NCBI GenBank assembly: GCA_964016885.1
Contig: OZ024743.1
Coordinates: 368,466,001-368,530,000 of the forward strand
From: Eledone cirrhosa
Taxonomy: Eukaryota
DNA: 64,000 nucleotides
Direction of reading: 5' to 3'
A program made the translations under genes and the position numbers. The notes under the pieces are model-generated. The model was not told the DNA's origin. It ran no database searches and saw only the letters and a program-made list of their open reading frames with translations. Below, in pieces: positions 32-56,440 of this stretch. Position 1 is the stretch's first letter. Each line of letters opens with the position of its first letter.

Positions 32-195
32 TGTTGATTTAAAACTGCACTATCCACAAGTGTTTTTTAGCCTTCATATCATGTTCTCCTGTTTTATCTG
101 ATGAAAACACAAATATTATTGCATGATGATGTTTATTTTTGAAATGCGTATAATAAAATACATGGAACTCCTTTAACCATCTTTTGATCTTATAT

Positions 196-6200: not shown

Positions 6201-6876
6201 TGTTACAGATAGTTAAGTTATTTGCGTCGCAGAATTCCAGGATTCTGGAGCCTTCCTCATTTCTAGTACCGAACCCATAGCCTCCATGGATTCCATCATA
6301 GCCATCACAATGTTGTCCAACGTGACCATGTAGGTCGCCTGCAATAACTATATAGTCACTGTCGGTTATTTGGGAGGTAGCGAGCATCAGTGTGTCGTAG
6401 AATCTGTCTTTTATAGCGCCGGGCAGTCCGGATTGGGGTGCGTACGCAGATATTACTGTCACCGTAGTTTTATTGAGGACAAGTCTTATTTTAATTATTC
6501 TGTCGTTCACTCTATTTACGTCTATTATCTTATCTGCCCACTTTTCTGCTACCATGATTCCTACCCCACCCAACCCATTGTCATTTCCCACCCAGAAAAG
6601 CTTATAGCATCGTTCTTTACCCACGATGAATCTAGCCGACCCTCCCCTCCACCTGGTCTCTTGAATACAACAAACATCGACCTCCTTACGTTCAAGCATT
6701 TCTACAACCTCGTTAGAGCGACCCTTTAAGGTGCCTACATTCATGGTACCAACTCTGAAGTTTTGGATTGCGTTTGGAGGGTGGGGAGCGGTGGGGGATG
6801 GGGTTATGTTAGCCATCCTGGGCCGAAACAAGGAGGAGTGCTTGCATTCTCGTCCACGAGGTGAATTTGGCTTTAT
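3216..6876 (-). mobile_element. RTE LINE family A (subtype A1), 5'-truncated
   Basis: (GAT)n tail at 3216-3239, 3' UTR with a 112-bp internal duplication, single APE-RT ORF; truncated relative to the 17679-22411 copy. Confidence 0.95.
3724..6831 (-). CDS. RTE ORF (APE endonuclease + RT + PHD-type finger); open but probably defective
   Basis: GTMNV, IQETRW, SAYAPQ, DLEKAFD and YADD motifs present. Compared with sibling copies it has GDLNGH>GDLHGH, QGSVLSP>QGSVLRP and CPKC>CPKY; native 5' end missing. Confidence 0.85.
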
Positions 6877-7005
6877 GTATATATATATATATATGTATAT
6901 ATATATGTATATGTATATATATATATATGTTATATTATGTATATATATATATATATGTATATATATGTATATATATATGTGTGTATATATATGTATATAT
7001 ATATA

Positions 7006-7036
<31 letters not shown>

Positions 7037-7180
7037 GTATATGTGTGTATATATATGTATATATATATATATATGTATATGTGTGTATATATATGTATAT
7101 ATATATATATATGTATATGTGTGTATATATATGTATATATATATATATATGTATATGTGTGTATATATATGTATATATAT

Positions 7181-10100
7181 ACAATCCATATTTCGTATCA
7201 AGTCCAAATAGCCAATCTATCGCTAAAACAAACTACATTTTCTGTTTCTATTAATTGCTAAATACGTAGGTTTTTGGACGTATTTAACAGAACAAATTTT
7301 GTATTTTTGTTAATCGCTTGTTAAATGCATGGACCCCACTCAATCATTACCTTCTTGCTAGCTACCCAACACCCCTCCCTCCCACCCCCACGCACCACCA
7401 TTGCTATTACGTGGACCAATCATAAAACAGAGCCCCCACGCATCACCAGTATTATTACGCGGACCAATCAGAAACCAGAGGCCTATACTATCGCTTGCCT
7501 GGTTGCCTTTCGATATACGATATATGATGGTTGGATGGACTGCGGAATCCTGGAGAGTGGAGGTGAGAGAGAAAAATCTGGACGCTCAGCGACAATGCCA
7601 AAGATAAAGACAAATTCACCTCTTGGACGAGAATGCGAGCACTCCTCATTGTTTCGACCGCGGACGGCTAACATAACCCCATCGCCCCCCGCCCCTCACC
7701 GCCCCCAACCCCCAAACGCAATCCAAAACCTCAGAGTTGGTACCATAAATGTAGGCACCCTAAAGGGTCGCGCTAACGAGGTTGTAGAAATGCTTGAACG
7801 TAAGGAGGTCGATGTTTGTTGTATTCAAGAGACCAGGTGGAGGGGTGGGTCTGCTAGGTTCATTGAGGGTAAAAAACGATGTTATAAGCTTTTCTGGGTG
7901 GGAAACGACGATGGGCTGGGTGGAGTAGGAATCATGGTAGCAGAAAAGTGGGCAGATAAGATAATAGACGTAAATAGAGTGAACGACAGAATAATTAAAA
8001 TACGACTTGTCCTCAATAGAACTACGGTGACAGTAATATCTGCGTACGCACCCCAATCCGGACTGCCCGACACTATAAAAGACAGATTCTATGAGACACT
8101 GATGCTAACTACCTCCCAAATATCCGACAGTGACTATATAATTATCGCAGGCGACCTAAATGGTCACGTTGGACAACATTGTGATGGCTACGACGAAATC
8201 CATGGAGGCTATGGGTTTGGTACTAGAAATGAGGAAGGCTCCAGAATCCTGGAATTCTGTGATGCAAATAACCTAACTATCTGTAACACTAACTTCAAAA
8301 AACGTGACAATCACCTGATCACCTATAGATCCGGGAACACACAAGCCAGGTAGATTATATCCTTACCAGAAGACGTGACAGAGTGTCTGTTGTAAACACT
8401 AAATCCCTCCCCCATGAAGAATGCACCTCCCAACATAGACTGATAATTAGCGACCTCATAGTCAGGACGAGACGTACTCGACAACAGAAGAGGACTATCC
8501 TCAGGAGGAAAATATGGAAGCTAAAGGACCCCACAGCCAGGAATAAATTTCAAAGCATATTACTTGATGCTTTCGACAGTAAGGAAGAACATTTAGAATC
8601 GGACAATATAGAGGGAGAGTGGGAATTTCTGAAAGCAAACCTGCTGTTGGCGACAGACGAAGTCTGTGGCTGGAGCAGGCCTGTAGGCAGGAGGAGAGTA
8701 ACATGGTGGTGGAACAGTAAGGTGGAGGGGTCAATTAAGGCCAAAAAGCAGGCTTGGAAAGTATGGCGGGATGGGGGAAGTAGAGAGGACTATCAAGTGG
8801 CCAGGAGGGAAGCTAGGAGACAAGTGTACTTAGCAAGAAGGGAAGCTGAGGAAAGAAAGTTCAAGCATGTTCTACAACGCGATGACCAAAAACGTGAGGT
8901 GTTCAGGATTGCTAGGCAATGCGTCAAGGAAAACCGTGATATTGTCGGGGAGAAGTGTGTACTAAACGACGATGGCACACTTGCCATCACCGACGCTGAT
9001 AAGAAGGTAGCTTGGAAGTGTCACTATGAAAGGCTACTAAATGAGGAGAATAATTGGGAGAAAGGCAGTCTCCCCCATATCGACCCAATAGAGGGACCAG
9101 CAGTGTTAGTCGAGGGGAGTATAATAAGTAAGGCAATCAAGGATATGAAGACTGGTAAGGCGGCTGGGCCTTCGGAAATAGTTGCTGAGATGCTGAAGGC
9201 ATCTGGCACGGTGGGACACACCATGGTCACCCGCATAGTTAACCAAGTTGTACAGAATGGGGTTGTTCCGAAGGACTGGCATAGCAGCATCATCGTTAAC
9301 TGTTATAAGGGTAAAGGAGACGCCCTAGATAGGAGTAACTATAGAGGCATTAAATTAATCGACCAGGTCATGAAGGTCACGGAAAAAGTAATAGCGCAAC
9401 TAATCAGAGAGAGAATTGACCTAGATGAAATGCAGTTCGGGTTTGTGTCAGGCAAAAGTACCACAGACGCTCTTTTCATAGTACGACAACTACAGGAGAA
9501 GTACCTAGCTAAAGGTAAACCCCTCTACTTAGCTTTTGTCGACTTGGAGAAAGCCTTCGACAGAGTCCCCCGCTCCATTATCTGGTGGGCTCTTAGAAAA
9601 CTAGGCGTTGACGAATGGCTTGTGAGAGCTATACAAGCCATGTATAAAGAAACAGTCAGCAAGGTTAGAATTAACAACGAATATAGTGAAGAGTTTAGCG
9701 TAAAAGTTGGCGTCCATCAGGGCTCTGTTCTCAGTCCACTACTATTTATTATTGCCCTTCAGGCTATAACAGAGGAGTTCAAGACAGGCTGCCCATGGGA
9801 ACTCCTATACGCAGACGACCTGACACTCATAGCGGAATCAATGGCCGAGCTAGAGAAGAAATTCCAAACATGGAAGCACGGCCTAGAGTCAAAAGGCCTT
9901 AAAATTAACCTGGCTAAGACCAAAGTACTAGTTTGTAGGAAAGAAAACAAGGCGGCGGTCCCTTCTGGGAAATGGTCGTGCTCGGTGTGTAGGAAAGGCG
10001 TAGGTAGAAACTCCATTTTATGTCCTAAATGCAAAGTATGGGTGCATAAAAGATGTAGTGGGATCACAGGTAAGCTAACTAAGAACATAGATTTTTACAT

Positions 10101-11442: not shown

Positions 11443-11818
11443 ATTAGAAATTAGAAATTATAAGCTTTCACCGTATTTTAGACTAAAGAAATTTCTAGCC
11501 TGATAGTGGGGTTTATAACCCTCGGAGAAATGGAAAAAAATGAGTGTTGCCGTACATGGGAGTCGAACCCACATCTTTGGGATGTGTTTTGGTGTAATGG
11601 TAGCACAGTGGTCGCGATAACCAAAGATGTGGGTTCGACTCCCATGTACGGCAACACTCATTTTTTTCCATTTCTCCGAGGGTTATAAACCCCACTATCA
11701 GGCTAGAAATTTCTTTAGTCTAAAATACGGTGAAAGCTTATAATTTCTAATTTCTAATTTCAAACTCGCGCACCGTTTCAAAAACATACTTACATTTTTA
11801 CGTTTATAATTTGCTTGT
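11443..11818 (+). mobile_element. Hairpin element: 138-bp inverted arms around a tRNA-like module plus ~60-bp unpaired tail
   Basis: Arms 11443-11580 and 11621-11758 are reverse complements; A box TGGTGTAATGG (11590-11600), B box GGTTCGACTCC (11632-11642), T7 at 11661-11667; flanked by TA tracts. Confidence 0.75.
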
Positions 11819-11819
11819 G

Positions 11820-13324: not shown

Positions 13325-13506
13325 ATAATATAAGATCAAAAGATGGTTAAAGGAGTTCCATGTATTTTATTATGCGCATTTCAAAAACAAACATCATCAT
13401 GCAATAATATTTGTGTTTTCATCAGATAAAACAGGAGAACATGATATGAAGGCTAAAAAACACTTGTGGATAGTGCAGTTTTGTACTACAATAAAACTCA
13501 CCTCCT
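13325..13506. mobile_element. H1 element: inverted arm with hammerhead (minus strand 13365-13431) fused to the direct 3' tail
   Basis: 13325-13481 is the reverse complement of 38-196; 13482-13506 (TGTACTACAATAAAACTCACCTCCT) is the reverse complement of 56021-56045; GAAA-TGCGCA-TA intact. Confidence 0.75.
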
Positions 13507-13511
13507 ATATG

Positions 13512-18172: not shown

Positions 18173-21100
18173 TTAGGTAAGGCGGGTCTTCTCTATTACT
18201 GAGTACCGCCAAAGGTCTCGGTCCAGTGACATTGTCTTGGAGAGGTGTAAGCGTGTGAGGTCGGAATTTATCAGCTCGTCCCATGTTTTTCTGGGTCTGC
18301 CTACTCCGTGGCTACCGTCTATCTTTATTGCCCTGCACTTTGTTATACAGCTGTCGTCTTTCATGCGCATCACGTGACCGTACCAACGTAGCCTTCTCTA
18401 GAGTAAACAACATCTGATCCCTCTTATTTCTAATTTTTTCCTTAGTTCGTTTATGCTTTGCCGTTCACGTATATTACTATTGCACATCCAGCGGAGCATG
18501 CAAGCTTCGTTCCTCTCTAGTCTGCGTATATCCTCTGCACACAATGCCCAGGTCTCACTGCCATGCAGCATTGCTGTTCGTATGCAGGCATCGTATAACC
18601 TGCCTTTCATTTTTAGGGAGAACCCTCTAGCGGCTAATAGTGGTATAAGCTCTCTGAACTTTTTCCATCCAGTTCTGACTCTAGCTACTGTACTTTCAGA
18701 GCACCCTCCCCCACTGCTGATTTTGTCACCCAGATAACGGAAGCTGTCCACTATTTCTATAGAACCCTCTGCGCAGTTGAAGGAGCTAGTATTTTGTGGG
18801 CACTTGCTGCTACTTATTGCACCAGAGCACCGGCCACATGTAAAATCTATGTTCTTAGTTAGCTTACCTGTGATCCCACTACATCTTTTATGCACCCATA
18901 CTTTGCATTTGGGACATAAAATGGAGTTTCTACCTACGCCTTTCCTACACACTGAGCATGGCCATTTCCCCGATGGGACCGCCGCCTTATTTTCTTTCCT
19001 ACAAACTAGAACTTTAGTCTTAGCCAGGTTAATTTTAAGGCCTTTTGATTCTAGGCCGTGCTTCCACGTTTGGAATTTCTTCTCTAGTTCGGTCATTGAT
19101 TCAGCTATGAGCGTTAGATCATCTGCGTATAGGAGTTCCCATGGGCAGCCGGTCTTGAACTCCTCTGTTATAGCCTGAAGGGCAATAATAAATAGTAGGG
19201 GGCTAAGTACAGAGCCCTGATGGACACCAACTTTTACGCTAAACTCTTCACTATATTCGTTGTTAATTCTAACCTTACTGACTGTTTCTTTATACATGGC
19301 TTGTATAGCTCTCACAAGCCATTCGTCAACACCTAGTTTTCTAAGAGACCACCAGATAATGGAACGGGGGACTCTGTCGAAGGCTTTCTCCAAGTCGACA
19401 AAAGCTAAGTATAGGGGTTTACTTTTAGCTAGGTACTTCTCCTGTAGTTGTCGTACAATGAAAAGAGCGTCTGTGGTACTTTTGCCTGACACAAACCCGA
19501 ACTGCATTTCATCTAGATCAATTCTCTCTCTGATTAGTTGCGCTATTACTTTTTCCGTGACCTTCATGACCTGGTCGATTAATTTAATGCCTCTATAGTT
19601 ACTCCTATCTAGGGCATCTCCTTTTCCCTTATAGCAGTTAACGATGATGCTGCTACGCCATTCCTTCGGAACAACCCCATTCTGTACGACTTGGTTAACT
19701 ATCCGGGTGACCATGGTGTGTCCCACCGAACCAGATGCCTTCAGCATCTCAGCAACTATTTCCGAAGGCCCAGCCGCCTTACCCGTCTTCATATCTTTGA
19801 TTGCCTTACTTATTATACTACCTTCAACTAACACTGCTGGTCCCTCTATTGGATCGATCTGGGGGAGACTGTCTTTCTCCCATTTGTTCTCCTCATTTAG
19901 AAGCCTTTCGTAGTGACACTTCCAAGCTACCTTCTTATCAGCGTCGGTGATGGCAAGTATGCCATCATCGTTAAGTACACACTTCTCCCCGACAATATCA
20001 CGGTTTTCCTTGACACATTGCCTGGCAATCCTGAACACCTCACGTTTTTGGTCCTCACGTTGTAGAACATGCTTGAACTTTCTTTCCTCTGCTTCCCTTC
20101 TTGCGAAGTACACTTGTCTCCTAGCTTCCCTCCTGGCCACTTGATAGTCTTCTCTACTTCCCCCATCCCGCCATACTTTCCAAGCCTGCTTTTTGGCCTT
20201 AATTGACTCCTCCACCTTACTGTTCCACCACCATGTTACTCTCCTCCTACCTACAGGCCTGCTCCAGCCACAGACTTCGTCTGCCGCCGTCAGCAGGTTT
20301 GCTCTCAGGAATTCCCACTGTTCCTCTATATTATACGACTCTAATTGCTCTTCCTTACTGTCGAAAGCGTCAAGTAATTTGCTTTGAAATTTATTTCTGG
20401 CTATGGGGTCCTTTAGCTTCCATATTTTTCTCCTGAGGATAGTCCTCTTTCGCTGTCTAGTACGTCTCGTCCTGACTATGAGGTCGCTAATTATCAGTCT
20501 ATGTTGGGAGGTGAATTCTTCATGGGGGTGGGATTTAGTGTTAACAACAGACACTCTGTCACGTCTTCTGGTAAGGATATAATCTACCTGGCTTGTGTGT
20601 TCCCCCGATCTATAGGTGATCAAGTGATTGTCTCGTTTTTTGAAGTTAGTGTTACAGATAGTTAAGTTATTTGCGTCGCAGAATTCCAGGATTCTGGAGC
20701 CTTCCTCATTTCTAGTACCGAACCCATAGCCTCCATGGATTCCGTCATAGCCGTCACAATGTTGTCCAACGTGACCATTTAGGTCGCCTGCAATAACTAT
20801 ATAGTCACTGTCGGTTATTTGGGAGGTAGCGAGCATCAGTGTCTCGTAGAATCTGTCTTTTATAGCGCGGGGCTGTCCGGATTGGGGTGCGTACGCAGAT
20901 ATTACTGTCACCGTAGTTTTATTGAGGACAAGTCTTATTTTAATTATTCTGTCGTTCACTCTATTTACGTCTATTATCTTATCTGCCCACTTTTCTGCTA
21001 CCATGATTCCTACCCCACCCAACCCATTGTCATTTCCCACCCAGAAAAGCTTATAGCATCGCTCTTTACCCACGATGAATCTAGCCGACCCTCCCCTCCA

Positions 21101-21421
21101 CCTGGTCTCTTGAATACAACAAACATCGACCTCCTTACGTTCAAGCATTTCTACAACCTCGTTAGAGCGACCCTTTAAGGTGCCTACATTCATGGTACCA
21201 ACTCTGAAGTTTTGGATTGCGTTTGGAGGGTGGGAGCGGTGGGGCGCGGGGGGGGGGGATGGGGTTATGTTAGCCATCCTGGGCCGAAACAAGGAGGAGT
21301 GCTTGCATTCTCGTCCACGAGGTGAATTTGGCTTTATCTTTGACATTGTCGCTGAGCGTCCACATTTTTCTCTCTTCAACTCTCCAGAATTCCGTAGTCC
21401 ATCCATCATATCGAAAAGCAA
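18173..21421 (-). pseudogene. RTE APE-RT-PHD ORF with a premature stop at 18398-18400
   Basis: 1007-aa ORF ends at ...RCCLL, where siblings continue ERRLRW (GAG>TAG); the remaining C-terminus is still present to 18173. Confidence 0.9.
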
Positions 21422-21550
21422 CCAGTTAAGCGATAGTATGGGCCTCTGACTTATGATTGGTCCACGTAATAATGGTGGTGCGTGGGGGCGGGAGGGAGGG
21501 ATGATGGGTTGTTAGCGAGAATGTAAGGTTTAAGATAAGATCGCCGTATT

Positions 21551-32025: not shown

Positions 32026-32313
32026 TATATGTATGTGTATATATATCATGTTCATCATCATGTTATGTCCATTTTTCCATGCTAGTTAAATGAGTTGTCC
32101 TGTTGTAGGCAATGCCAGGTCCGATGACCATGTCTTACTCATAACCATATATATATAAATTAATAAAAACAATGAATAAAAACAAAGAAGTTCCTTATAT
32201 TAACTCTGTTGTCCTGTGATTTTCATCGAAAATGTTTGAATGCATCTTCTCTTTTCATGATATATGGAATACATATATATATATATAAATGTCGTATTTC
32301 TAAAGAAACATGG

Positions 32314-32534
32314 CATGTTTACAGGAAACATTTAGGAAGCCGTAGCTATGTAAACACTGGGGATAGTGCCCTCTGGTGGTGTCCAGCAGAAGCAAGCGGT
32401 GGGAGGGACCGTCCTGATGAAGGCCAGTCAAGCCTGAAGATGGTTGTCCCCCTTGCTTCTGCTGGACACCACCAGAGGGCGCTAGCCCCGGTGTTTACAT
32501 AGCTACGGCTTCCTAAATGTTTCCTGTAAGCATG
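32314..32534. repeat. ~83-bp imperfect inverted repeat around a degenerate hammerhead-like spacer
   Basis: Arms ~32314-32396 and 32452-32534; spacer ACCGTC-CTGATGA-AGGC...GCCT-GAA-GATGGT. Confidence 0.75.
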
Positions 32535-32596
32535 GTATGTTTGAAGCGAAATCCTATTTCTATATATTTAGATATATATGTGTATGTGTATATATA

Positions 32597-32666
32597 TTGG
32601 GTCGTCAAGTATGAAATTTGTAGAAAAAAAAACAAATTTCTACCAATTTCATACTTGACGATCCAA
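32597..32666. mobile_element. 70-bp palindromic mariner-type MITE
   Basis: TTGGGTCGTCAAGTATGAAATTTGTAGAAA ... TTTCTACCAATTTCATACTTGACGATCCAA flanked by TA. Confidence 0.65.
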
Positions 32667-34059
32667 TATATATTTATATGTATATATATATATATCATCA
32701 TCATCATCATTTAACGCATATATATATATATCATCATCATCATCATTTTACATCAGCTTTTTCCTGCATGCAAGGGTGGGATATATATGTTTATATAAAT
32801 ATATATATCAACCTATTTGTATTTACCGTTGTTGTGGTATATGTATGGCCACTGCCTTCAGTCATTTTTCTTGGTGTCACACTTTACCTTTTGTGTTTAC
32901 TCTGGACGATAATGTATTAACTTCTCACTCCATTGAGTGCTTTGTGATTGTATTAAACAATTTGATTGTACATGCTATATTGCGGCTACAACTTTGATTC
33001 ATACCCAATATTGTGTATATATATATATGTGTGTGTGTGAGTGTGTGTATATATGTGTGTATGTGTGTATATATGCATACAAAGACATATATGGATGTAT
33101 ATACATATATATATATACACACACAAACACATACACATATGCATATATATACATGTATCTATATATTTATATATATGTTAAGTGCTTGAATATGGAAGGG
33201 CTCCTCTTCTGCTTAGTTTTTCATCACTGATAATACTAATTCATATAGGAAAGGTGCTTGATAAAATATTCTATGAAATGGGAATTTTACCAAAATCGTT
33301 ACTTATGTCGCTAGTATTGATTATTAATAATATATAACAATGATTAGTATTGTTCACTGAAGTCTATATTGATTTTTTCTTGTTTATATATTTGTTTGTG
33401 ATTTCATTAAAAAAAAAACCTACTTTAAAATAAACAAAAATAAAACTGTTGAGTTTCTCACAGCATGTGGCAAACTGATTTGGTCCTGAGACCTTTTTTG
33501 TCATCAAATAATGGTTATTTTGATGGTAATAATTATGGTTTTGTTCATGATAATTATAATTTTATTTATATAAATGAGCATTATAGTGATTGGCTCAATA
33601 ACATATTTCATTCTATCACTACAATGTCACAAATTTGCTTGGGAGAGGACACAGCCCATTGACTTTACCCCAATTTATAATGGGAAGGAAGAAAGACCAA
33701 GTTAACCCTGACAGGATTTTAACCCAGTACATAGCAGAACTAAAATACTGTAATACCGTTAGTTGAATTCTGTAGTGTCTCAATCAATGATAATAATAAT
33801 ATAGGCACAAATTTGGAAGAGAGATTAATTATTCTAGTAAATCAACCGCAAGTATTAACTAATAATACTAATGGCAATGGATAAATGTATAGTTAATATT
33901 TCTTTTAACAATATTTTAAGTCTTTCGGTGAAAAATGTTCAGGTGTACAGTAAGAGAGCTATTTGAAAAAAACACATCAACACTAGTTTGGTTTCCTTAC
34001 TAGCAAGGGTTGGATATTACATACATACGTATTTACATACATATGCCTATATATACATA

Positions 34060-45000: not shown

Positions 45001-45048
45001 CAGAGGCCTATACTATCGCTTGCCTGGTTGCCTTTCGATATATGATGG

Positions 45049-48000
45049 ATGGATGGACTGCGGAATCCTGGAGAGTGGAGGAGAGAGAGAGAAAAATCTG
45101 GACGCTCAGCGACAATGCCAAAGATAAAGACAAATTCACCTCTTGGACGAGAATGCGAGCACTCCTCATTGTTTCGACCGCGGACGGCTAACATAACCCC
45201 ATCGCCCCCCGCCCCCCACCGCCCCCAACCCCCAAATGCAATCCAAAACTTCAGAGTTGGTACCATAAATGTAGGCACCCTAAAGGGTCGCGCTAACGAG
45301 GTTGTAGAAATGCTTGAACGTAAGGAGGTCGATGTTTGTTGTATTCAAGAGACCAGGTGGAGGGGTGGGTCTGCTAGGTTCATTGAGGGTAAAAAACGAT
45401 GTTATAAGCTTTTCTGGGTGGGAAACGACGATGGGCTGGGTGGAGTAGGAATCATGGTAGCAGAAAAGTGGGCAGATAAGATAATAGACGTAAATAGAGT
45501 GAACGACAGAATAATTAAAATACGACTTGTCCTCAATAGAACTACGGTGACAGTAATATCTGCGTACGCACCCCAATCCGGACTGCCCGGCACTATAAAA
45601 GACAGATTCTATGAGACACTGATGCTAACTACCTCCCAAATATCCGACAGTGACTATATAATTATTGCAGGCGACCTAAATGGTCACGTTGGACAACATT
45701 GTGACGGCTACGACGAAATCCATGGAGGCTATGGGTTTGGTACTAGAAATGAGGAAGGCTCCAGAATCCTGGAATTCTGTGATGCAAATAACCTAACTAT
45801 CTGTAACACTAACTTCAAAAAACGTGACAATCACCTGATCACCTATAGATCCGGGGAACACACAAGCCAGGTAGATTATATCCTTACCAGAAGACGTGAC
45901 AGAGTGTCTGTTGTAAACACTAAATCCCTCCCCCATGAAGAATGCACCTCCCAACATAGACTGATAATTAGCGACCTCATAGTCAGGACGAGACGTACTC
46001 GACAGCAGAAGAGGACTATCCTCAGGAGAAAAATATGGAAGCTAAAGGACCCCACAGCCAGGAATAAATTTCAAAGCATATTACTTGATGCTTTCGACAG
46101 TAAGGAAGAACATTTAGAGTCGGACAATATAGAGGGAGAGTGGGAATTTCTGAAAGCAAACCTGCTGTTGGCGACAGACGAAGTCTGTGGCTGGAGCAGG
46201 CCTGTAGGCTGGAGGAGAGTAACATGGTGGTGGAACAGTAAGGTGGAGGGGTCAATTAAGGCCAAAAAGCAGGCTTGGAAAGTATGGCGGGATGGGGGAA
46301 GTAGAGAAGACTATCAAGTGGCCAGGAGGGAAGCTAGGAGACAAGTGTACTTAGCAAGAAGGGAAGCTGAGGAAAGAAAGTTCAAGCATGTTCTACAACG
46401 CGATGACCAAAAACGTGAGGTGTTCAGGATTGCTAGGCAATGCGTCAAGGAAAACCGTGATATTGTCGGGGAGAAGTGTGTACTAAACGACGATGGCACA
46501 CTTGCCATCACCGATGCTGATAAGAAGGTAGCTTGGAAGTGTCACTATGACAGGCTAATAAATGAGGAGAATAAATGGGAGAAAGACAGTCTCCCCCATA
46601 TCGACCCAATAGAGGGACCAGCAGTGTTAGTCGAGGGGAGTATAATAAGTAAGGCAATCAAGGATATGAAGACGGGTAAGGCGGCTGGGCCTTTGGAAAT
46701 AGTTGCTGAGATGCTGAAGGCATCTGGCACGGTGGGACACACCATGGTCACCCGCATAGTTAACCAAGTCGTACAGAATGGGGTTGTTCCGAAGGACTGG
46801 CATAGCAGCATCATCATTAACTGTTATAAGGCTAAAGGAGACGCCCTAGATAGGAGTAACTATAGAGGCATTAAATTAATCGACCAGGTCATGAAGGTCA
46901 CGGAAAAAGTAATAGCGCAACTAATCAGAGAGAGAATTGACCTAGATGAAATGCAGTTCGGGTTTGTGTCAGGCAAAAGTACCACAGACGCTCTTTTCAT
47001 AGTACGACAACTACAGGAGAAGTACCTAGCTAAAGGTAAACCCCTCTACTTAGCTTTTGTCGACTTGGAGAAAGCCTTCGACAGAGTCCCCCGCTCCATT
47101 ATCTGGTGGGCTCTTAGAAAACTAGGTGTTGACGAATGGCTTGTGAGGGCTATACAAGCCATGTATAAAGAAACAGTCAGCAAGGTTAGAATTAACAACG
47201 AATATAGTGAAGAGTTTAGCGTAAAAGTTGGCGTCCATCAGGGCTCTGTTCTCAGCCCCATACTATTTATTATTGCCCTTCAGGCTATAACAGAGGAGTT
47301 CAAGACAGGCTGCCCATGGGAACTCCTATACGCAGACGACCTGACACTCATAGCGGAATCAATGGCCGAGCTAGAGAAGAAATTCCAAACATGGAAGCAC
47401 GGCCTAGAGTCAAAAGGACTTAAAATTAACCTGGCTAAGACCAAAGTACTAGTTTGTAGGAAAGAAAACAAGGCGGCAGTCCCTTCTGGGAAATGGTCGT
47501 GCTCGGTGTGTAGGAAAGGCGTAGGTAGAAACTCCATTTTATGTCCCAAATGCAAAGTATGGGTGCATAAAAGATGTAGTGGGATCACAGGTAAGCTAAC
47601 TAAGAACATAGATTTTACATGTGGCCGGTGTTCTGGTGCAATAAGTAGCAGCAAGTGCCCACAAAATACTAGCTCTTTCAATTGCACAGAGGGTTCTATA
47701 GAAATAGTGGACAGCTTCCGTTACCTGGGCGATAAAATCAGCAGTGGGGGAGGGTGCTCTGAAAGTACAGTAGCTAGAGTCAGAACTGGATGGAAAAAGT
47801 TCAGAGAGCGTATACCACTATTAGCTGCTAAAGGGTTCTCCCTAAAAATGAAAGGCAGGTTGTACGATGCCTGCATACGAACAGCAATGCTGCATGGCAG
47901 TGAGACCTGGGCATTGTGTGCAGAGGATATACGCAGACTAGAGAGGAACGAAGCTTGCATGCTCCGCTGGATGTGTAACAGTAATATACGTGAACGGCAA

Positions 48001-48285
48001 AGCATAAACGAACTAAGGAAAAAATTAGAGATAAGAGGGATCAGATGTTGTTTACTCGAGAGAAGGCTACGTTGGTATGGACACGTGATGCGCATGAAAG
48101 TCGATAGCTGTATAACAAAGTGCAGGGCAATAAAGATAGACGGTAGTCACGGAATAGGCAGACCTAGAAAAACCTGGGACGAGCTGATAAACTCCGACAT
48201 CACACACTTACACCTCTCCAAGACAATGTCACTGGACCGAGACCTTTGGCAGTACTCAGTAACGGAGAAGACCCGCCTTACCTAA
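45049..48285 (+). CDS. Intact RTE ORF, 1078 aa: APE endonuclease + RT + PHD-type finger
   Basis: GTINV, QETRW, YAPQ, GDLNGH, VDYIL, SQHRL, DLEKAFD, QGSVLSP, YADD, C4HC3 finger, FRYLG and GRPRKTW all intact. Confidence 0.93.
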   Translation: MDGLRNPGEWRREREKSGRSATMPKIKTNSPLGRECEHSSLFRPRTANITPSPPAPHRPQPPNAIQNFRVGTINVGTLKGRANEVVEMLERKEVDVCCIQETRWRGGSARFIEGKKRCYKLFWVGNDDGLGGVGIMVAEKWADKIIDVNRVNDRIIKIRLVLNRTTVTVISAYAPQSGLPGTIKDRFYETLMLTTSQISDSDYIIIAGDLNGHVGQHCDGYDEIHGGYGFGTRNEEGSRILEFCDANNLTICNTNFKKRDNHLITYRSGEHTSQVDYILTRRRDRVSVVNTKSLPHEECTSQHRLIISDLIVRTRRTRQQKRTILRRKIWKLKDPTARNKFQSILLDAFDSKEEHLESDNIEGEWEFLKANLLLATDEVCGWSRPVGWRRVTWWWNSKVEGSIKAKKQAWKVWRDGGSREDYQVARREARRQVYLARREAEERKFKHVLQRDDQKREVFRIARQCVKENRDIVGEKCVLNDDGTLAITDADKKVAWKCHYDRLINEENKWEKDSLPHIDPIEGPAVLVEGSIISKAIKDMKTGKAAGPLEIVAEMLKASGTVGHTMVTRIVNQVVQNGVVPKDWHSSIIINCYKAKGDALDRSNYRGIKLIDQVMKVTEKVIAQLIRERIDLDEMQFGFVSGKSTTDALFIVRQLQEKYLAKGKPLYLAFVDLEKAFDRVPRSIIWWALRKLGVDEWLVRAIQAMYKETVSKVRINNEYSEEFSVKVGVHQGSVLSPILFIIALQAITEEFKTGCPWELLYADDLTLIAESMAELEKKFQTWKHGLESKGLKINLAKTKVLVCRKENKAAVPSGKWSCSVCRKGVGRNSILCPKCKVWVHKRCSGITGKLTKNIDFTCGRCSGAISSSKCPQNTSSFNCTEGSIEIVDSFRYLGDKISSGGGCSESTVARVRTGWKKFRERIPLLAAKGFSLKMKGRLYDACIRTAMLHGSETWALCAEDIRRLERNEACMLRWMCNSNIRERQSINELRKKLEIRGIRCCLLERRLRWYGHVMRMKVDSCITKCRAIKIDGSHGIGRPRKTWDELINSDITHLHLSKTMSLDRDLWQYSVTEKTRLT

Positions 48286-48702
48286 ATATATAGTAAAAAC
48301 CTACTCCAGCCAGTAGGCATCTCTATCAAAACACCCCCCCCCGTCCCACCACCTCCACCCCATCCACACCGCCCCTTTCAATGTACAGACATGTTGGTCC
48401 CACAACATCCAGGCCGAAACAAATGAGATCGTGTAAGTGTCACGACAAAAAAACACACAGTCCACGCTGTAAATGTGGCCGTGTAGGCAACACGGTAAAA
48501 ACCTCCCCGCCCCACACTGTAAATGTGGTTGGTGTTAGGAAGGGCATCCAACTGTAGAAAACCCGCCAGACAGTCCTATGCGAGCAAGACAACCACTCTT
48601 GCCTCAAGTGGGAAAACCCCCGTCCAAACCCATGCAAGCGTGGAACACGGATGCTAAACCTGATGATGATGATGATGATGATGATATATATATATATATA
48701 TA

Positions 48703-48918
48703 TTGGGAACGATTGACTTTCGTCAAATCGGACCGAGGGAACAATTTTTCCGTTGGTCTTTCAAATTGCTAATACTATCTATCGGTCGCAACTCCAGGTA
48801 GAAGGAGCGACGTGATAAAGTGTCTTGCTCAAGGACATAACGCATCGCCTGGTCCAGGAATCGAACTCACAACCTTACGATTGCAAATCCAATTCTCTAA
48901 CCACTCAGCCACATGCCT
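48703..48918 (-). mobile_element. tRNA-derived SINE head (48918-48812) joined to a distinct structured 3' segment
   Basis: AGGCATGTGGCTGAGTGGTTAGAG ... GAGTTCGATTCC ... TCCTTGAGCAAGACACTTTA, then three hairpins. Confidence 0.7.
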
Positions 48919-49060
48919 TATATATATATATCATATATATATATATATCATATATATATATATATATCATATATATATATATATATATCATATATATATA
49001 TATCGTATATATATCATATATATATATATCGTATATATATATATATATATGATATATATA

Positions 49061-49095
<35 letters not shown>

Positions 49096-49112
49096 ATATA
49101 TATATGATATAT

Positions 49113-49492
49113 ATAAAATAAAGTTAAATAAAAGTCAAATGATTAAAATTTAGCTTCGTTTATTACTGCTATATATATTTCAGTGACAGCCATCTTTGGC
49201 TGTGACCTCTTCAGGCAGTTTGAATTAGTATGGTATAGACAAGTACATATGTTGTTTAGGTGTATGATATTGTCAATACTCTGATATGCCCAGTTCCTTG
49301 CTGGGTTGTTATTTCACTGGGGAACTGGAGTCATAAACTGGAGTAATAAACGAAGCTAAATTTTAATCATTTGACTTTTATTTAACTTTATTTTACACTA
49401 CTCCGGAGTAACCAAACCAACCTGCGCACTTCGTCGAGTGCTCCAGCCTGCATACTGAGGTGTTGGTATACAACCAACATAAACTCAAAATC
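49113..49492 (+). mobile_element. Non-autonomous Penelope-style element (family H3): inverted arm + direct 3' end with tail
   Basis: 49114-49167 is the reverse complement of 49342-49395; ~97-bp unpaired tail; flanked by TA tracts. Confidence 0.75.
49165..49219 (-). ncRNA. Minimal type I hammerhead ribozyme (H3)
   Basis: Minus strand: ACUGC-CUGAAGA-GGUCACAGCC aaagau GGCUGUCACU-GAAA-UAUAU-AUA-GCAGU, followed by AAUAAA. Confidence 0.82.
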
Positions 49493-49594
49493 TATATGAT
49501 ATATATATATATATATATATATGATATATATATATGATATATATATGATATATATATATATATATATGATATATATATATATATATATATATAT

Positions 49595-50222
49595 ATCATC
49601 ATCATCATCAACGTTTAACGTCCGTGTTCCACGCTTGCATGGGTTTGGACGGGGGTAGTCCCACTTGAGGCAAGAGTGATTGTCTTGCTCGCATAGGACT
49701 GTCTGGCAGGTTTTCTACAGTTGGATGCCCTTCCTAACACCAACCACATTTACAGTGTGGGTCTGGGAGGTTTTTACCGTGTTGCCTACACGGCCACATT
49801 ACAGCGTGGACTGTGTGTTTTTTTGTCGTGACACCTACACGATCTCGTTTGTTTCGGCCTGGATGGCGCGGCACCAACATAACTTTACATAGAACGGGGT
49901 GGTGTGGATGGGGTGGGGGTGGTGGCGGGACGGGGTGTATTTTGTTAGAGATGCCTACTGGCAAGGCGGGTCTTCTCTGTTACTGAGTACCGCCAAAGGT
50001 CACGGTCCAGTGACATTGTCTTGGAGAGGTGTAAGTGTGTGAGGTCGGAGTTTATCAGCTCATCCCATGTTTTTCTAGGTCTGCCTATTCCGTGGCTACC
50101 GTCTATCTTTATTGCCCTGCACTTTGTAATACAGCTATCGACTTTCATGCGCATCACGTGTCCATACCAACGCAGCCTTCTCTCGAGTAAACAACATCTG
50201 ATCCCTCTTATCTCTAATTTTT
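49595..50222 (-). mobile_element. RTE family A 3' fragment with a small deletion across the stop codon
   Basis: ORF end ...EKTRLASRHL; (GAT)n tail. Confidence 0.9.
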
Positions 50223-50393
50223 TTATATATATATATATATATCATCATCATCATCATTTTACATATATGATATATATATATATATATATGATATATATAT
50301 ATATATATATATGATATATATATATATATATATGATATATATATATATATATATGATATATATATATATATATATGATATATATATATATATG

Positions 50394-50442
<49 letters not shown>

Positions 50443-50461
50443 GATATATATATATATATAT

Positions 50462-53400
50462 ATCATCATCATCATCATCATCACCGTTTTACGTCCGTTC
50501 TTCCACGCTAGCATGGGTTAGACGGGTTGTCCTGTTGTGGGCACTGTCTGGTTGGCTGACCATGCCTTGCTCATACAGGAACTGATCTGGCTTGATTTCT
50601 ACAGCTGGATGCCCTTCCTAACACCAACCTCATTTACAGTGAGTGCTGGGTGCTTTTTCGTGGCGCCTACACGTCCACTTTACAGTGTGGGCTGGGTGCT
50701 GTTTTGCCGTGGCACCTCCACGACCACCTTGCGGTGGGGGGGGGGGGGGCATATCGTTTATATGCTTCAGCATGTACCCATGGGAGGTCGGGTACCCTGT
50801 ATTACTGCGTGACGCCAGAAGTCACGGTCGTGTGTCATTGACTTTGAGAGGTGTAGTTGGGTAAGGTCGGCTTTTATCACCTCATCCCAAGTCATCTTGG
50901 GTCTCCCCACTCCGCGGTTTCCATCAACTTCTAGTGCTCTGCACCTTTTTATGCAGCTGTCATCCTTCATACGCATCACATGTCCATACCAGCGTAACCG
51001 CCTCTCCTGCACGCAGCATTTGATTCCTCTTATGCTCAGTCTCTCTCTCAATTCATTTATGCTTTGTCGTTCACGTATATTACTGTTACACATCCATCGG
51101 AGCATGCAGGCTTCGTTTCTCTCTAATCTACGTAAGTCTTCCACCTTCAGCGCCCAGGTCTCACTACCATGCAACATCGCTGTTCGGATACACGCATCAT
51201 ACAGTCTGCCTTTCATTCTGAGGGAGAAGCCTTTTGCAGCTAGCAGTGGTAGTAGTTCCCTAAACTTCTTCCATCCCGTTCTTACCCTAGTTATTGTACT
51301 TTCTGAGCACCCACCTCCGTTGCTAATTCGGTCACCTAGGTAGCAGAAGCTGTCTACTGTTTCTACAGGGCCCTCCCAGAGATTGGTGGTACTTGTTTCC
51401 TGTGGCTGTTTGCTTGCTGTTTCAGCACAGCTGCTGCATGTGAATCCTACATTCTTAATTAAGCTTCCTGAGATCCCGCTACATCTCTTGTGTACCCATT
51501 GTTTGCATTTGGGGCAAAGAATGGAGTTCCTACCTACACCTTTCCTACATACTGAGCAAGGCCATTTCCCTGAGGGGATCTGGGTTCTGTTTTCTCGTCT
51601 ACTTATAAGGACCTTAGTCTTTGTCATGTTGACTTTGAGGCCCTTTCTCTCTAGTCCCTGCTTCCAGGTTTGGAATTTATTCTCTAGTTCTACCATAGAT
51701 TCAGCTATGAGTGCGAGGTCATCAGCATACAGGAGTTCCCATGGGCATCCGGTCTTAAACTCCTCCGTTATTGCCTGCAGGACTATGATGAACAGGAGAG
51801 GGCTAAGAACAGAGCCCTGGTGGACCCCAACCTGTACGCTAAATTCCTCGCTATACTCATTGCCAATCCTAACTTTGCTGACTGCTCCCCTATACATGGC
51901 TTGTACCGCTTTCACAAGCCATTCATCTACTCCTAGTTTTCTAAGAGCCCACCAGATTACTGCACGTGGAACTCTGTCAAAGGCTTTCTCAAGGTCGACA
52001 AATGCCAAGTAGAGTGGCTTACTTTTAGCTAGGTACTTTTCCTGTAATTGCCTCACAAGGAAGAGCGCATCAGTGGTGCCTTTCCCTGGAACAAACCCAA
52101 ATTGCATCTCGTCTATATTCACCCGGTCCCTAATCAGCTGTGCTATAACTCTTTCTGTTACTTTCATGACCTGGTCCATCAACTTTATACCTCTATAGTT
52201 TCCTCTATCTAGTGCATCGCCTTTACCTTTGTAGCAGTTGACAATGATGCTACTGCACCAATCTTTTGGTATGGCCCCCTCTAGTATTACCTGGTTAACG
52301 ATACGTGTGGTTATAGTGTGACCTACAGACCCAGATGCCTTCAGCATCTCGGCAGCTATACCCGATGGACCGGTTGCCTTCCCTATCTTCATATCTCTGA
52401 TTGCCTTACTTACTACGCTGCCGCTGACTTGTACTGCTGGTCCCTCTATAGGGTCTACGTGGGGTAGGGTCTCTTCTTCCCATGCATTCTCCTCATTTAG
52501 TAATCTATCATAATGACTCTTCCATGCATCTTTCTTCTCAGCACTTGTGAGGGCAAGCTCACCTTTATCATTCCGGATACACTTCTCTCCAATGACATCA
52601 CAACTATCTCTGACACACTGCCTCGCAATCTTGAATACCTCCTGTTTCTGGTCCTCACGTTGTAAAACATGCTTGAATTTTCTATCCTCTGCTTCCCTCC
52701 TAGCTAAGTATACTTGTCGCCTAGCTTCCCTCTTGGTCTCTATGTAATGTACCCTGCTCCCCCCGTTCTTCCATTCTTTCCATGCCTGTCTCTTGGCCTT
52801 GACTGCTTCATCTACCTTATTGTTCCACCACCAAGTCACTCTCCTCCTGCTTGAGGTCTTACTCCAGCCACAAACCTCATCCGTCGCCTCTAGTAAGTTA
52901 TTTTTTAGGAACTCCCAGTTCTCTTCTACGTTAAATGTCTCTATCTGTTCTTCTTTACTGTCGTAGGCGTTGAGTAAAATATCTTTAAATCTGTTACTGG
53001 TTGAGGGGACTTTCAGCTTCCAGATCTTTCTTCTCCAGGTTGGCCTCTGTTTCAGGGCTCGTCTAGTTCTGACCGTGAGGTCGCTGACAACTAAGCTATG
53101 TTGGGATGTACATTCCTCACTAGGGAAGGCTTTTGTGTTTACGACCGTCCATCTGTCACGTCCTCTGATGAGGATAAAATCTAACTGACTAGAGTGCTCC
53201 CCTGATCTATAGGTGATCAGGTGGTTGTCGGGTTTTTTAAAGTTTGTGTTACATATCGACATGTCATTGGCGTCGCAGAATTCTAGAAGTCTGAATCCTT
53301 CCTCATTCCTTGTGCCAACTCCATGGCCTCCATGTACTCTATTGAAGCCGTCGCAGTGTTTACCTACGTGTCCGTTAAAATCTCCTGCAATGATTAGGAA

Positions 53401-53868
53401 GTCCTTGTCGTCTGTTAGAGCAGTAGTGTGTATTAGGGACTCGTAAAACCTATCCTTAAGTTCGTCTGGCAGCCCCGATTGGGGTGCGTAAGCTGATATT
53501 ATTGTGGTAATTGTCTTATTCAGGACTAGTCTGAGTTTAATGATTCTTGCATTTACCCTGTACACTGAGATTACTTTATCTACCCACTTGTCAGCTAATA
53601 GTATACCTACACCACCCATCCCATCGTCATTTCCCACCCAGAAAAATTTGTAGCACTGGCTTTTTCCTACAAGGACTCTAGCAGACCCTCCTCTCCATCT
53701 AGTCTCTTGCACACAGCATACATCAACTTCCTTTCGCTCTAGCATTTCTACGATTTCTCCTGCTCTTCCTTTCATTGAGCCTACATTGATGGTACCAACT
53801 CGGAGTTTTGGGCATTTGTCGACACTCGTAGGGGAGGGTCTCTGGGTTGGCGCTTCACGTGGGTGCTT
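50462..53868 (-). mobile_element. RTE LINE family B, slightly 5'-truncated
   Basis: (GAT)n tail, distinct 3' UTR and long ORF; ends in (TA)n just upstream of the GTINV motif. Confidence 0.95.
50767..53775 (-). CDS. RTE family B ORF (APE + RT + PHD-type finger), open, native start missing
   Basis: GDFNGH, DLEKAFD, QGSVLSP, YADD and CSVC...CPKC...HKRC...CSSC intact; the frame continues upstream as KLRVGTINVGS until the truncation. Confidence 0.9.
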   Translation of the reverse strand: MKGRAGEIVEMLERKEVDVCCVQETRWRGGSARVLVGKSQCYKFFWVGNDDGMGGVGILLADKWVDKVISVYRVNARIIKLRLVLNKTITTIISAYAPQSGLPDELKDRFYESLIHTTALTDDKDFLIIAGDFNGHVGKHCDGFNRVHGGHGVGTRNEEGFRLLEFCDANDMSICNTNFKKPDNHLITYRSGEHSSQLDFILIRGRDRWTVVNTKAFPSEECTSQHSLVVSDLTVRTRRALKQRPTWRRKIWKLKVPSTSNRFKDILLNAYDSKEEQIETFNVEENWEFLKNNLLEATDEVCGWSKTSSRRRVTWWWNNKVDEAVKAKRQAWKEWKNGGSRVHYIETKREARRQVYLARREAEDRKFKHVLQREDQKQEVFKIARQCVRDSCDVIGEKCIRNDKGELALTSAEKKDAWKSHYDRLLNEENAWEEETLPHVDPIEGPAVQVSGSVVSKAIRDMKIGKATGPSGIAAEMLKASGSVGHTITTRIVNQVILEGAIPKDWCSSIIVNCYKGKGDALDRGNYRGIKLMDQVMKVTERVIAQLIRDRVNIDEMQFGFVPGKGTTDALFLVRQLQEKYLAKSKPLYLAFVDLEKAFDRVPRAVIWWALRKLGVDEWLVKAVQAMYRGAVSKVRIGNEYSEEFSVQVGVHQGSVLSPLLFIIVLQAITEEFKTGCPWELLYADDLALIAESMVELENKFQTWKQGLERKGLKVNMTKTKVLISRRENRTQIPSGKWPCSVCRKGVGRNSILCPKCKQWVHKRCSGISGSLIKNVGFTCSSCAETASKQPQETSTTNLWEGPVETVDSFCYLGDRISNGGGCSESTITRVRTGWKKFRELLPLLAAKGFSLRMKGRLYDACIRTAMLHGSETWALKVEDLRRLERNEACMLRWMCNSNIRERQSINELRERLSIRGIKCCVQERRLRWYGHVMRMKDDSCIKRCRALEVDGNRGVGRPKMTWDEVIKADLTQLHLSKSMTHDRDFWRHAVIQGTRPPMGTC

Positions 53869-56020
<2,152 letters not shown>

Positions 56021-56440
56021 AGGAGGTGAGTTTTATTGTAGTACAATAAAGCAATGCAGATATCGGATAAGAAGCACTCTACAGTTTGTAGGACTGGAGT
56101 ATACATAATATATAAGAACAAAAGATGGTTAAAAGAGTTCCATGTATTTTATTATGCACATTTCAAAAACAAATATCATCATGCAATAATATTTGTGTTT
56201 TCATCAGATAAAACAGGAAGACATGATATGAAGGTTAAAAAACACTTGTGGATAGTGCAGTTTTAAATCAACATACCTGTTGATTTAAAACTGAACTATC
56301 CACAAGTGGTTTTTAACCTTCATATCATGTCTTCCTGTTTAATCTGATGAAAACACATATTATTGCATGATGATATTTGTTTTTGAAATGCGCATAATAA
56401 AATACATGGAACTCTTTTAACCATCTTTTGTTCTTATATA
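56021..56440 (-). mobile_element. H1 element: ~165-bp hairpin with two hammerheads plus ~88-bp tail
   Basis: Arms 56109-56273 and 56278-56440, loop TACC; hammerheads at 56147-56213 (-) and 56338-56402 (+); tail 56021-56108. Confidence 0.8.

Follow-up and report, generated by a model that had tools for sequence, protein, structure and literature searches.

The stretch at positions 49113-49492 of the analyzed window (64,000 nucleotides of Eledone cirrhosa DNA, contig OZ024743.1) is a Penelope-type head-to-head remnant. It acts like an insertion of an endonuclease-bearing Penelope-like element (PLE), although formal membership lacks a coding gene. An inverted copy of the element, carrying a hammerhead motif, is joined here to a direct copy that starts almost at the predicted ribozyme cut. 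In the first-pass annotation, this proximity was read as a possible footprint of reverse transcription running off a ribozyme-cleaved RNA end and then re-priming in inverted orientation. Breakpoints in the element family are non-uniform, and their preferred sites are not the cut. The cut-site coincidence at this locus is probably local, and the copy most likely does not record ribozyme cutting.

Anatomy of the locus and its hammerhead motif

The locus (49101-49507 with its flanks) is a short, non-coding insertion inside a TA-type microsatellite, which lies between two LINE 3' ends facing one another. The insertion is most likely recent. Its arms, 49114-49167 and 49342-49395, form an inverted repeat identical at 54 of 54 positions, and inward extension of this repeat fails. 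The left arm, identified by self-comparison (minus strand, nucleotides +3 to +56 relative to the ribozyme cut), is part of an inverted, 5'-truncated element copy at 49114-49335 (minus strand), which spans -165 to +56; loose ends at 49335 were found in the sequencing runs X1, X4, and X22. The direct, 5'-truncated copy, delimited by the inverted repeat and by other copies of the element, occupies 49342-49492 (plus strand). Its start mirrors 49167, which is nucleotide +3 of the cut product, and its end lies at +153. The two partial copies at the locus have different 3' end points, +56 versus +153. The one-sided extension, or tail, at 49396-49492 (plus strand) is absent from the other side and continues for 97 nt beyond the inverted repeat. 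This agrees with the previously recorded extension of about 97 bp past the arm, and the end is supported by other copies. A terminal RNA hairpin was predicted in the tail at 49456-49487 (plus strand; fold z -3.9), with its 5' arm at 49456-49467. The left and right TA-type microsatellite flanks (49101-49113 and 49493-49507) may represent a target duplication of 13-15 bp. Because its 13-mer occurs 17 times in 48000-51000, this putative duplication is not diagnostic and was not counted as evidence.

The minus strand at 49165-49219 contains a minimal type I hammerhead motif, including the core, stems I and II, and a palindromic stem III. The core is formed by C3-A9 at 49214-49208 and G12-A15.1 at 49181-49178. 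The cleavage triplet AUA is located at 49172-49170, with U16.1 at 49171 and H17 (A) at 49170, and the cut is predicted between 49170 and 49169, so that the product begins at 49169. Stem I consists of 5 bp, stem II has 10 of 11 pairs, and stem III is the self-complementary word AUAUAUAU. The motif had been described as clean, which holds for the core, the stems, and the palindromic stem III but not for two blemishes, namely one C-C mismatch in stem II and a G10.1-U11.1 closing pair rather than G-C. The G10.1-C11.1 pair is restored in many other copies (approximately 4 in 10 X22 reads at 49182), and the catalytic core is free of variants among the 40 best-supported variants listed (141 further). 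The motif had also been assigned to the inverted arm. It does lie inside the inverted segment 49114-49335, but the perfect 54-bp arm overlaps the ribozyme by 3 nt only.

The hammerhead is the minimum-energy fold of a 71-nt stretch (z -2.3) but not of the longer stretches folded. In the predicted minimum-energy dimer, the palindromes pair but do not give a double-hammerhead fold. Dinucleotide shuffling of the 380-nt region produced such a motif in 2 of 20,000 cases, never with a palindromic stem III. No hammerhead family match for the motif was found in the Rfam search; a match to MIR821 covered the long hairpin alone, far under the cut-off, and was rejected. A ribozyme pattern specific to the element family gave 0 matches in metagenome, genome, and viral contigs. 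A general core pattern, used as a null set only, gave 117 metagenome matches, including 1 with both stems (4-bp stem I) and 116 without stems; none of the 117 resembles the families of the window. An AUG in the stem II loop opens 16 codons across the cut (49146-49193, minus strand), and this frame stops in an AU-rich stretch.

The two segments are linked by a 6-nt filler at 49336-49341 (plus strand), which duplicates 49323-49328 and forms part of a 9-nt direct repeat (49323-49331 and 49336-49344). The chance of a 6-mer matching the last 30 nt of either arm is 2.4%. The inverted copy was considered to end at 49335, with 49336-49341 as filler, because other copies continue past 49335 with different letters (18 X1 contigs, 1 X4 contig, and 412 X22 reads). 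At three filler positions (49336, 49338, and 49341), X1 has depth 0, and the X22 reads covering the filler, 6-7 in number, bear ordinary ribozyme letters; the junction is therefore private to this locus. The direct copy had been reported to begin with a G at 49341-49342. The start at 49342 (+3) was retained, but the G at 49341 mismatches the element, in which C is expected, and belongs to the filler. The G at 49340 is in register with +1 of the cut product.

The two 5' ends meeting at the non-palindromic junction differ by approximately 168 nt. Of 313 element positions, the one that best matches the last 7 letters of the inverted arm is +3 to +9, with 6 of 7 identical; for the last 9 letters (49327-49335, plus strand), it is +1 to +9 of the cut product, with 7 of 9 identical (311 positions compared). 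Microhomology joins, sometimes with short copied fillers, occur in templated insertions at repaired breaks (polymerase-theta-type). In the simplest reading, the outer cDNA end may have annealed at the microhomology, been extended by 6 nt, and been re-joined. The microhomology at +3 thus gives the break a reason to sit there without cleavage. The match at 7 of 9 letters could also have caught a full run-off cDNA with its end at +1, and it therefore does not separate readings with and without cleavage at a single locus. For one junction, the prior chance of starting 0 to +4 from the cut is 2-4%, and the copy at 49113-49492 was picked on account of exactly this coincidence.

By masking, the window is approximately 18% microsatellite and approximately 42% LINE-like. 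Long open LINE frames are located at 45046-48285 (plus strand), 50767-53907, 3724-7197, and 18398-21511 (all minus strand). The two LINE frames that were scanned contain endonuclease, PHD-finger-like, and reverse transcriptase (RT) domains, and Pfam matches above the curated cut-offs were found in LINE frames only. No RT or GIY-YIG gene was found at the locus, nor any such Pfam match in the 78 scanned frames of the 174 non-LINE open frames of the window. The earlier designation of the locus as a Penelope-style inverted element is supported by the inverted 5'-truncated copy, the one-sided end, the minimal hammerhead, and the TA target, but no RT or GIY-YIG gene is tied to it.

Breakpoints in other copies and other families

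The stretch or a part of it was found in 16 of the 24 listed sequencing runs (8 with at least half of its words; 13 organism labels). For the label designated organism D, one run contains half of the words and two runs under the same label contain next to none (X7, X19, and X20). Four of the 24 runs (X1, X4, X17, and X22) were compared, and runs with a small share of the words (X13-X16) were left out. The copies came from 3,115 contigs in X1, 15 contigs in X4, and 7,599 reads in X22, and the element family is thus an abundant repeat. The 0 reads obtained from X17 refer to approximately 1 in 100 of that run and were not counted as a test.

The far end of the element is fixed at 49491-49494, followed by microsatellite: 82 of 212 X22 molecules stop at 49491, and loose microsatellite ends were found at 49493-49494 in X1 and X4. 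The +56 position appears to be a fixed inner site of the family, as suggested by the window copy, by a contig branch at this position in X4 (records 9 and 16), and by a second hammerhead family described below. Mirror joints at 49132/49377 (21 reads) and 49134/49375 (one contig) show that in other copies the ribozyme and the tail share a strand. Molecule ends do not accumulate at 49167-49169 or 49340-49342, and none of the 17 loose ends listed (275 further) is located at the cut. Depth sums of X1 in mirror bins, a crude measure, were approximately 1.09, 0.89, 0.71, 0.54, and 0.44 million, with no step up downstream of the cut. Pile-ups of X22 read ends at 49147, 49223, 49226, and 49359 were rejected as element ends, as all of them fall on AATT words and are restriction-library artefacts; the mixed loose ends at the same four positions were rejected for the same reason.

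Joints were collected from 15 joint rows listed (5 further) and 8 rows with filler letters. Rows were left out if they joined opposite strands (5), lay within the inverted part (6), or repeated another row (2). The 10 distinct joints retained, each connecting an inverted part to a direct part on one strand as in the window, are single contigs; in 5 of them the letters between the two sides are unspecified, and the sides given for 7 are 21-38 nt long at 85% likeness. X1 and X22 carry the same species label, and their loci may overlap. The direct parts in these joints start at +10, +37, +89, +94, +117, +119, +122, +125, +126, and +128. None of the 10 falls between -2 and +4 relative to the cut (in this small sample, the upper 95% bound for starts at the cut is 26%), while 6 lie at 49456-49467, the 5' arm of the terminal hairpin; the uniform expectation for the latter is 8e-5, before allowing for the post hoc choice of that interval. 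The inverted arms end at 49328-49335, approximately 160 nt upstream of the cut, in 8 of the 10 joints, with the reference itself stopping at 49335 and the true stop being visible in the window copy and in 4 joints with short known fillers only. Most of the joints consist of a long inverted arm and an end piece of 26-37 nt.

A second hammerhead family is represented in the window by three insertions in TA repeats, at 32-193 (plus strand), 13330-13507, and 56020-56437. These are 92-99% alike and have no alignment with the first family beyond short words. Their 5' ends lie at -121, -112, -121, -119, and +109 from the cut of this family, and none of the five is at the cut; the upstream ends, at 110-121 nt, look fixed. 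The arm ends at +41 in 4 of 4 cases, and the far end is at +133. Two of the three insertions are head-to-head. The copy at 13330-13507 comprises an inverted arm and a 25-nt end piece starting inside the terminal hairpin, like the major class of joints in the first family. The copy at 56020-56437 comprises two head-to-head arms, both extending across the ribozyme, with a near-perfect fold-back junction and a 4-nt spacer at 56274-56277. A tRNA-headed element at 11443-11819 (Rfam tRNA, 28.8 bits versus a cut-off of 29) has identical inverted arms of 138 nt, an end approximately 60 nt longer on one side, and TA flanks; no hammerhead was found in it by motif scans. Thus, the head-to-head layout arises without a start at the cut and apparently without a ribozyme. 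In total, this layout was also seen in three other short families of the window.

Plotting the breakpoints relative to the AUA triplet, as had been suggested with the first-pass annotation, therefore gave a non-uniform distribution piled up elsewhere than at the cut (0/10 joints; 0/5 ends in the second family). A footprint of reverse transcription off cleaved RNA is unsupported as a rule of the family, and at the locus itself microhomology alone picks +3. Re-priming in inverted orientation on the cleaved RNA also fails, because the inverted arm (-165 to +56) spans the cut and needs an uncleaved template, which the same cleaved RNA cannot provide.

In both hammerhead families, the word AAACUCA follows the terminal hairpin (49456-49492 and 56020-56050), the families being otherwise unrelated. 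Together, the word and the hairpin are a candidate signal for the start of reverse transcription.

Origin of the head-to-head structure

The structure was probably formed when both strands of the microsatellite were cut and primed cDNA synthesis on uncleaved RNA at two fixed sites, with the resulting cDNAs joined head to head. A Penelope-type reverse transcriptase/endonuclease, supplied in trans, would cut the two microsatellite strands. Because no coding partner was found, we infer this enzyme, and likewise the two priming events and the order of the steps. On the sense RNA, one cut strand would prime a cDNA at the far end (+153) and the other at the inner site (+56). The inner cDNA would read through the uncleaved ribozyme to approximately -165, a preferred 5' stop of the family; the stop near -160 may correspond to the transcript start or to a pause. 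The outer cDNA would come to an end within stem I, by stopping or by trimming, at the point of its best pairing with the terminus of the other cDNA, and would then be extended by 6 nt, released, and re-joined. The nearness to the cut would then reflect microhomology, and perhaps a pause in stem I, rather than self-cleavage. The other joints give a hint that most direct pieces end in the terminal hairpin and most templates are uncleaved.

An amended form of the cleavage footprint has to be weighed against this scheme. In this form, which has a low chance of being correct, the outer cDNA ran off a cleaved RNA at +1, lost two nucleotides, and joined a cDNA made from a second, uncleaved RNA. With both RNAs in one complex, the palindromic stem III could also form the dimeric ribozyme. 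The start at +3, the G at 49340 in register with +1, and the intact core, with 0 core variants among the 40 best-supported listed (141 further), agree with a cleaved end, but the filler accounts for both G's at 49340-49341 without a cut. The cut coincides with none of the 10 other joints and with none of the 5 ends in the second family, neither end pile-ups nor listed loose ends occur at 49167-49169 and 49340-49342, and the X1 depth, a crude measure, shows no step up downstream. The palindromic stem III suits dimer cleavage, and the protein of PAc (Poseidon of Anolis carolinensis) is a predicted dimer that assists its ribozyme (PMC11167929, available text); however, minimal hammerheads are weak in vitro (PMC4209133, available text), and cleavage was dispensable in PAc according to the same part of PMC11167929. 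A single event is also conceivable though rather unlikely, in which two RNAs in a Penelope-type complex, one cleaved by the dimeric hammerhead and one uncleaved, gave this copy; cleavage starts would then form a minor class of junctions under the major class of hairpin stops. If true, the two-RNA reading would mean that cleavage by a Penelope hammerhead in vivo has left its mark in the genome at this locus.

A head-to-head structure could also arise if an antisense transcript primed itself, an idea put forward for Penelope elements of rotifers on the basis of palindromes found where inverted copies meet (PMC3846280, in the part available), and the near-perfect fold-back junction of the second family, with its 4-nt spacer (56274-56277), would fit it. 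It is nevertheless improbable here: the junction in the window is non-palindromic, with 5' ends approximately 168 nt apart and filler between them, and most other joints combine a long inverted arm with an end piece of 26-37 nt. The absence of the junction from all runs compared, with X1 depth 0 at the filler and ribozyme letters in 6-7 X22 reads, would be expected of an assembly or fold-back read artefact, but the runs need not derive from the assembled individual, and some of their records are removed by a filter. Such an artefact is very improbable, given flanks that are not mirror images, a templated filler, joints of the same type in other runs, and the same layout in three other short families of the window. 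A miniature DNA transposon with 54-bp terminal inverted repeats, spreading as a unit, is scarcely credible and was largely refuted. It would explain the perfect 54-bp inverted repeat, but the junction is private, no listed piece spans the stretch, one arm is followed by another 97 nt of the element, and in other copies the ribozyme and the tail stand in collinear order.

Relation to known systems and other short elements

Endonuclease-bearing Penelope-like insertions (Penelope/Poseidon, Neptune, Nematis, and Hydra) share with the locus, as far as the available text of PMC8557442 and PMC3846280 describes them, the head-to-head inverted 5'-truncated copy, the extension at one end only, the hammerhead near the 3' end, and the TA microsatellite target with an unreadable target duplication. 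PLE insertions are described there as inverted 5'-truncated copies with a tail of 30-40 bp and a microsatellite bias (PMC8557442), whereas the tail at the locus is 97 nt and the locus is without coding sequence. The hammerhead-bearing segment may be regarded as a putative pseudo-LTR. In rotifer PLEs, head-to-head junctions, microhomology at a 5' junction, and the idea of antisense self-priming were reported (PMC3846280, in part).

As at the locus, where stem I has 5 bp, the minimal hammerheads of metazoan PLEs combine a short stem I with a long stem II and a stem III that is palindromic (Cervera and de la Pena, 2014; PMC4209133, available text). The locus differs from these by the G10.1-U11.1 pair (G-C in many other copies), and an additional nucleotide between A9 and 10.1 is not evident. 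The same text describes solitary motifs left by truncated PLEs, motif pairs located 100-700 bp from each other on opposite strands, a dimer model, and low in vitro activity.

The PAc protein cut and extended both strands in vitro, and reverse transcription began at two internal RNA sites matching the genomic tail (Frangieh et al., 2024; PMC11167929, available text). Ribozyme cleavage was not required, and, within that text, no RNA-seq reads began or ended at the cut. The locus shares with PAc two 3' ends that could be two start sites of reverse transcription, an AT-rich target, and an AC-rich stem-loop at the far end. The PAc ORF starts in its ribozyme, with the cut 26 bp after the start codon (PMC11167929, in part); similarly, the AUG of the locus is inside the ribozyme, approximately 24 nt upstream of the cut. 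In contrast to PAc, this AUG opens 16 codons only, the two ends are 97 nt apart, and no protein is linked to the locus. Non-LTR retrozymes are likewise short, non-coding, and low in GC, have a type I hammerhead, and are probably mobilised by Penelope elements, but they form head-to-tail tandem arrays, whereas the locus is a single head-to-head insertion (PMC7229834 and bioRxiv 10.64898/2026.07.22.740005, available parts). No tail-to-head joint was found among the 15 joint rows listed (5 further).

In L1 twin priming, primers on the two strands of the target lead to an inverted 5' part that is connected through microhomology. The locus shares with twin priming and polymerase-theta-type insertions the microhomology-joined inverted part and the short copied filler that sometimes occurs in them, but in the window the site of inner priming seems to be fixed (all 4 arms of the second family end at +41), and an overlap of 54 nt or more between the arms is possible.

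The role of the hammerhead in PLEs and the origin of inverted insertions are unsettled in the available text of PMC8557442 and PMC11167929, and the locus settles neither. In an open-access literature search, mostly at title level, no report of 5' truncations mapped against a hammerhead cut was found. The genome of the window, with very many short copies, several families, and apparently fixed ends, is a test bed for this. Counts of 5' ends relative to the cut, the upstream stop, and the terminal hairpin would test whether cleaved RNA ever serves as the template. The same counts bear on whether an additional priming event that stopped early produced the one-sided tail.

Three further short elements were observed in the window. 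The stretch at 32306-32542 forms a long hairpin with imperfect pairing (82% self-complementary). Its apex resembles a hammerhead core, in which CUGAUGA, a 4-bp stem II, and GAA are followed directly by the closing stem; neither a stem III nor a cleavage triplet is present at this apex. Another short hairpin insertion lies at 32590-32673. A tRNA-like head was seen at 48707-48915 on the minus strand (0 genes by ARAGORN in the window), which we take to be probably a SINE fragment.
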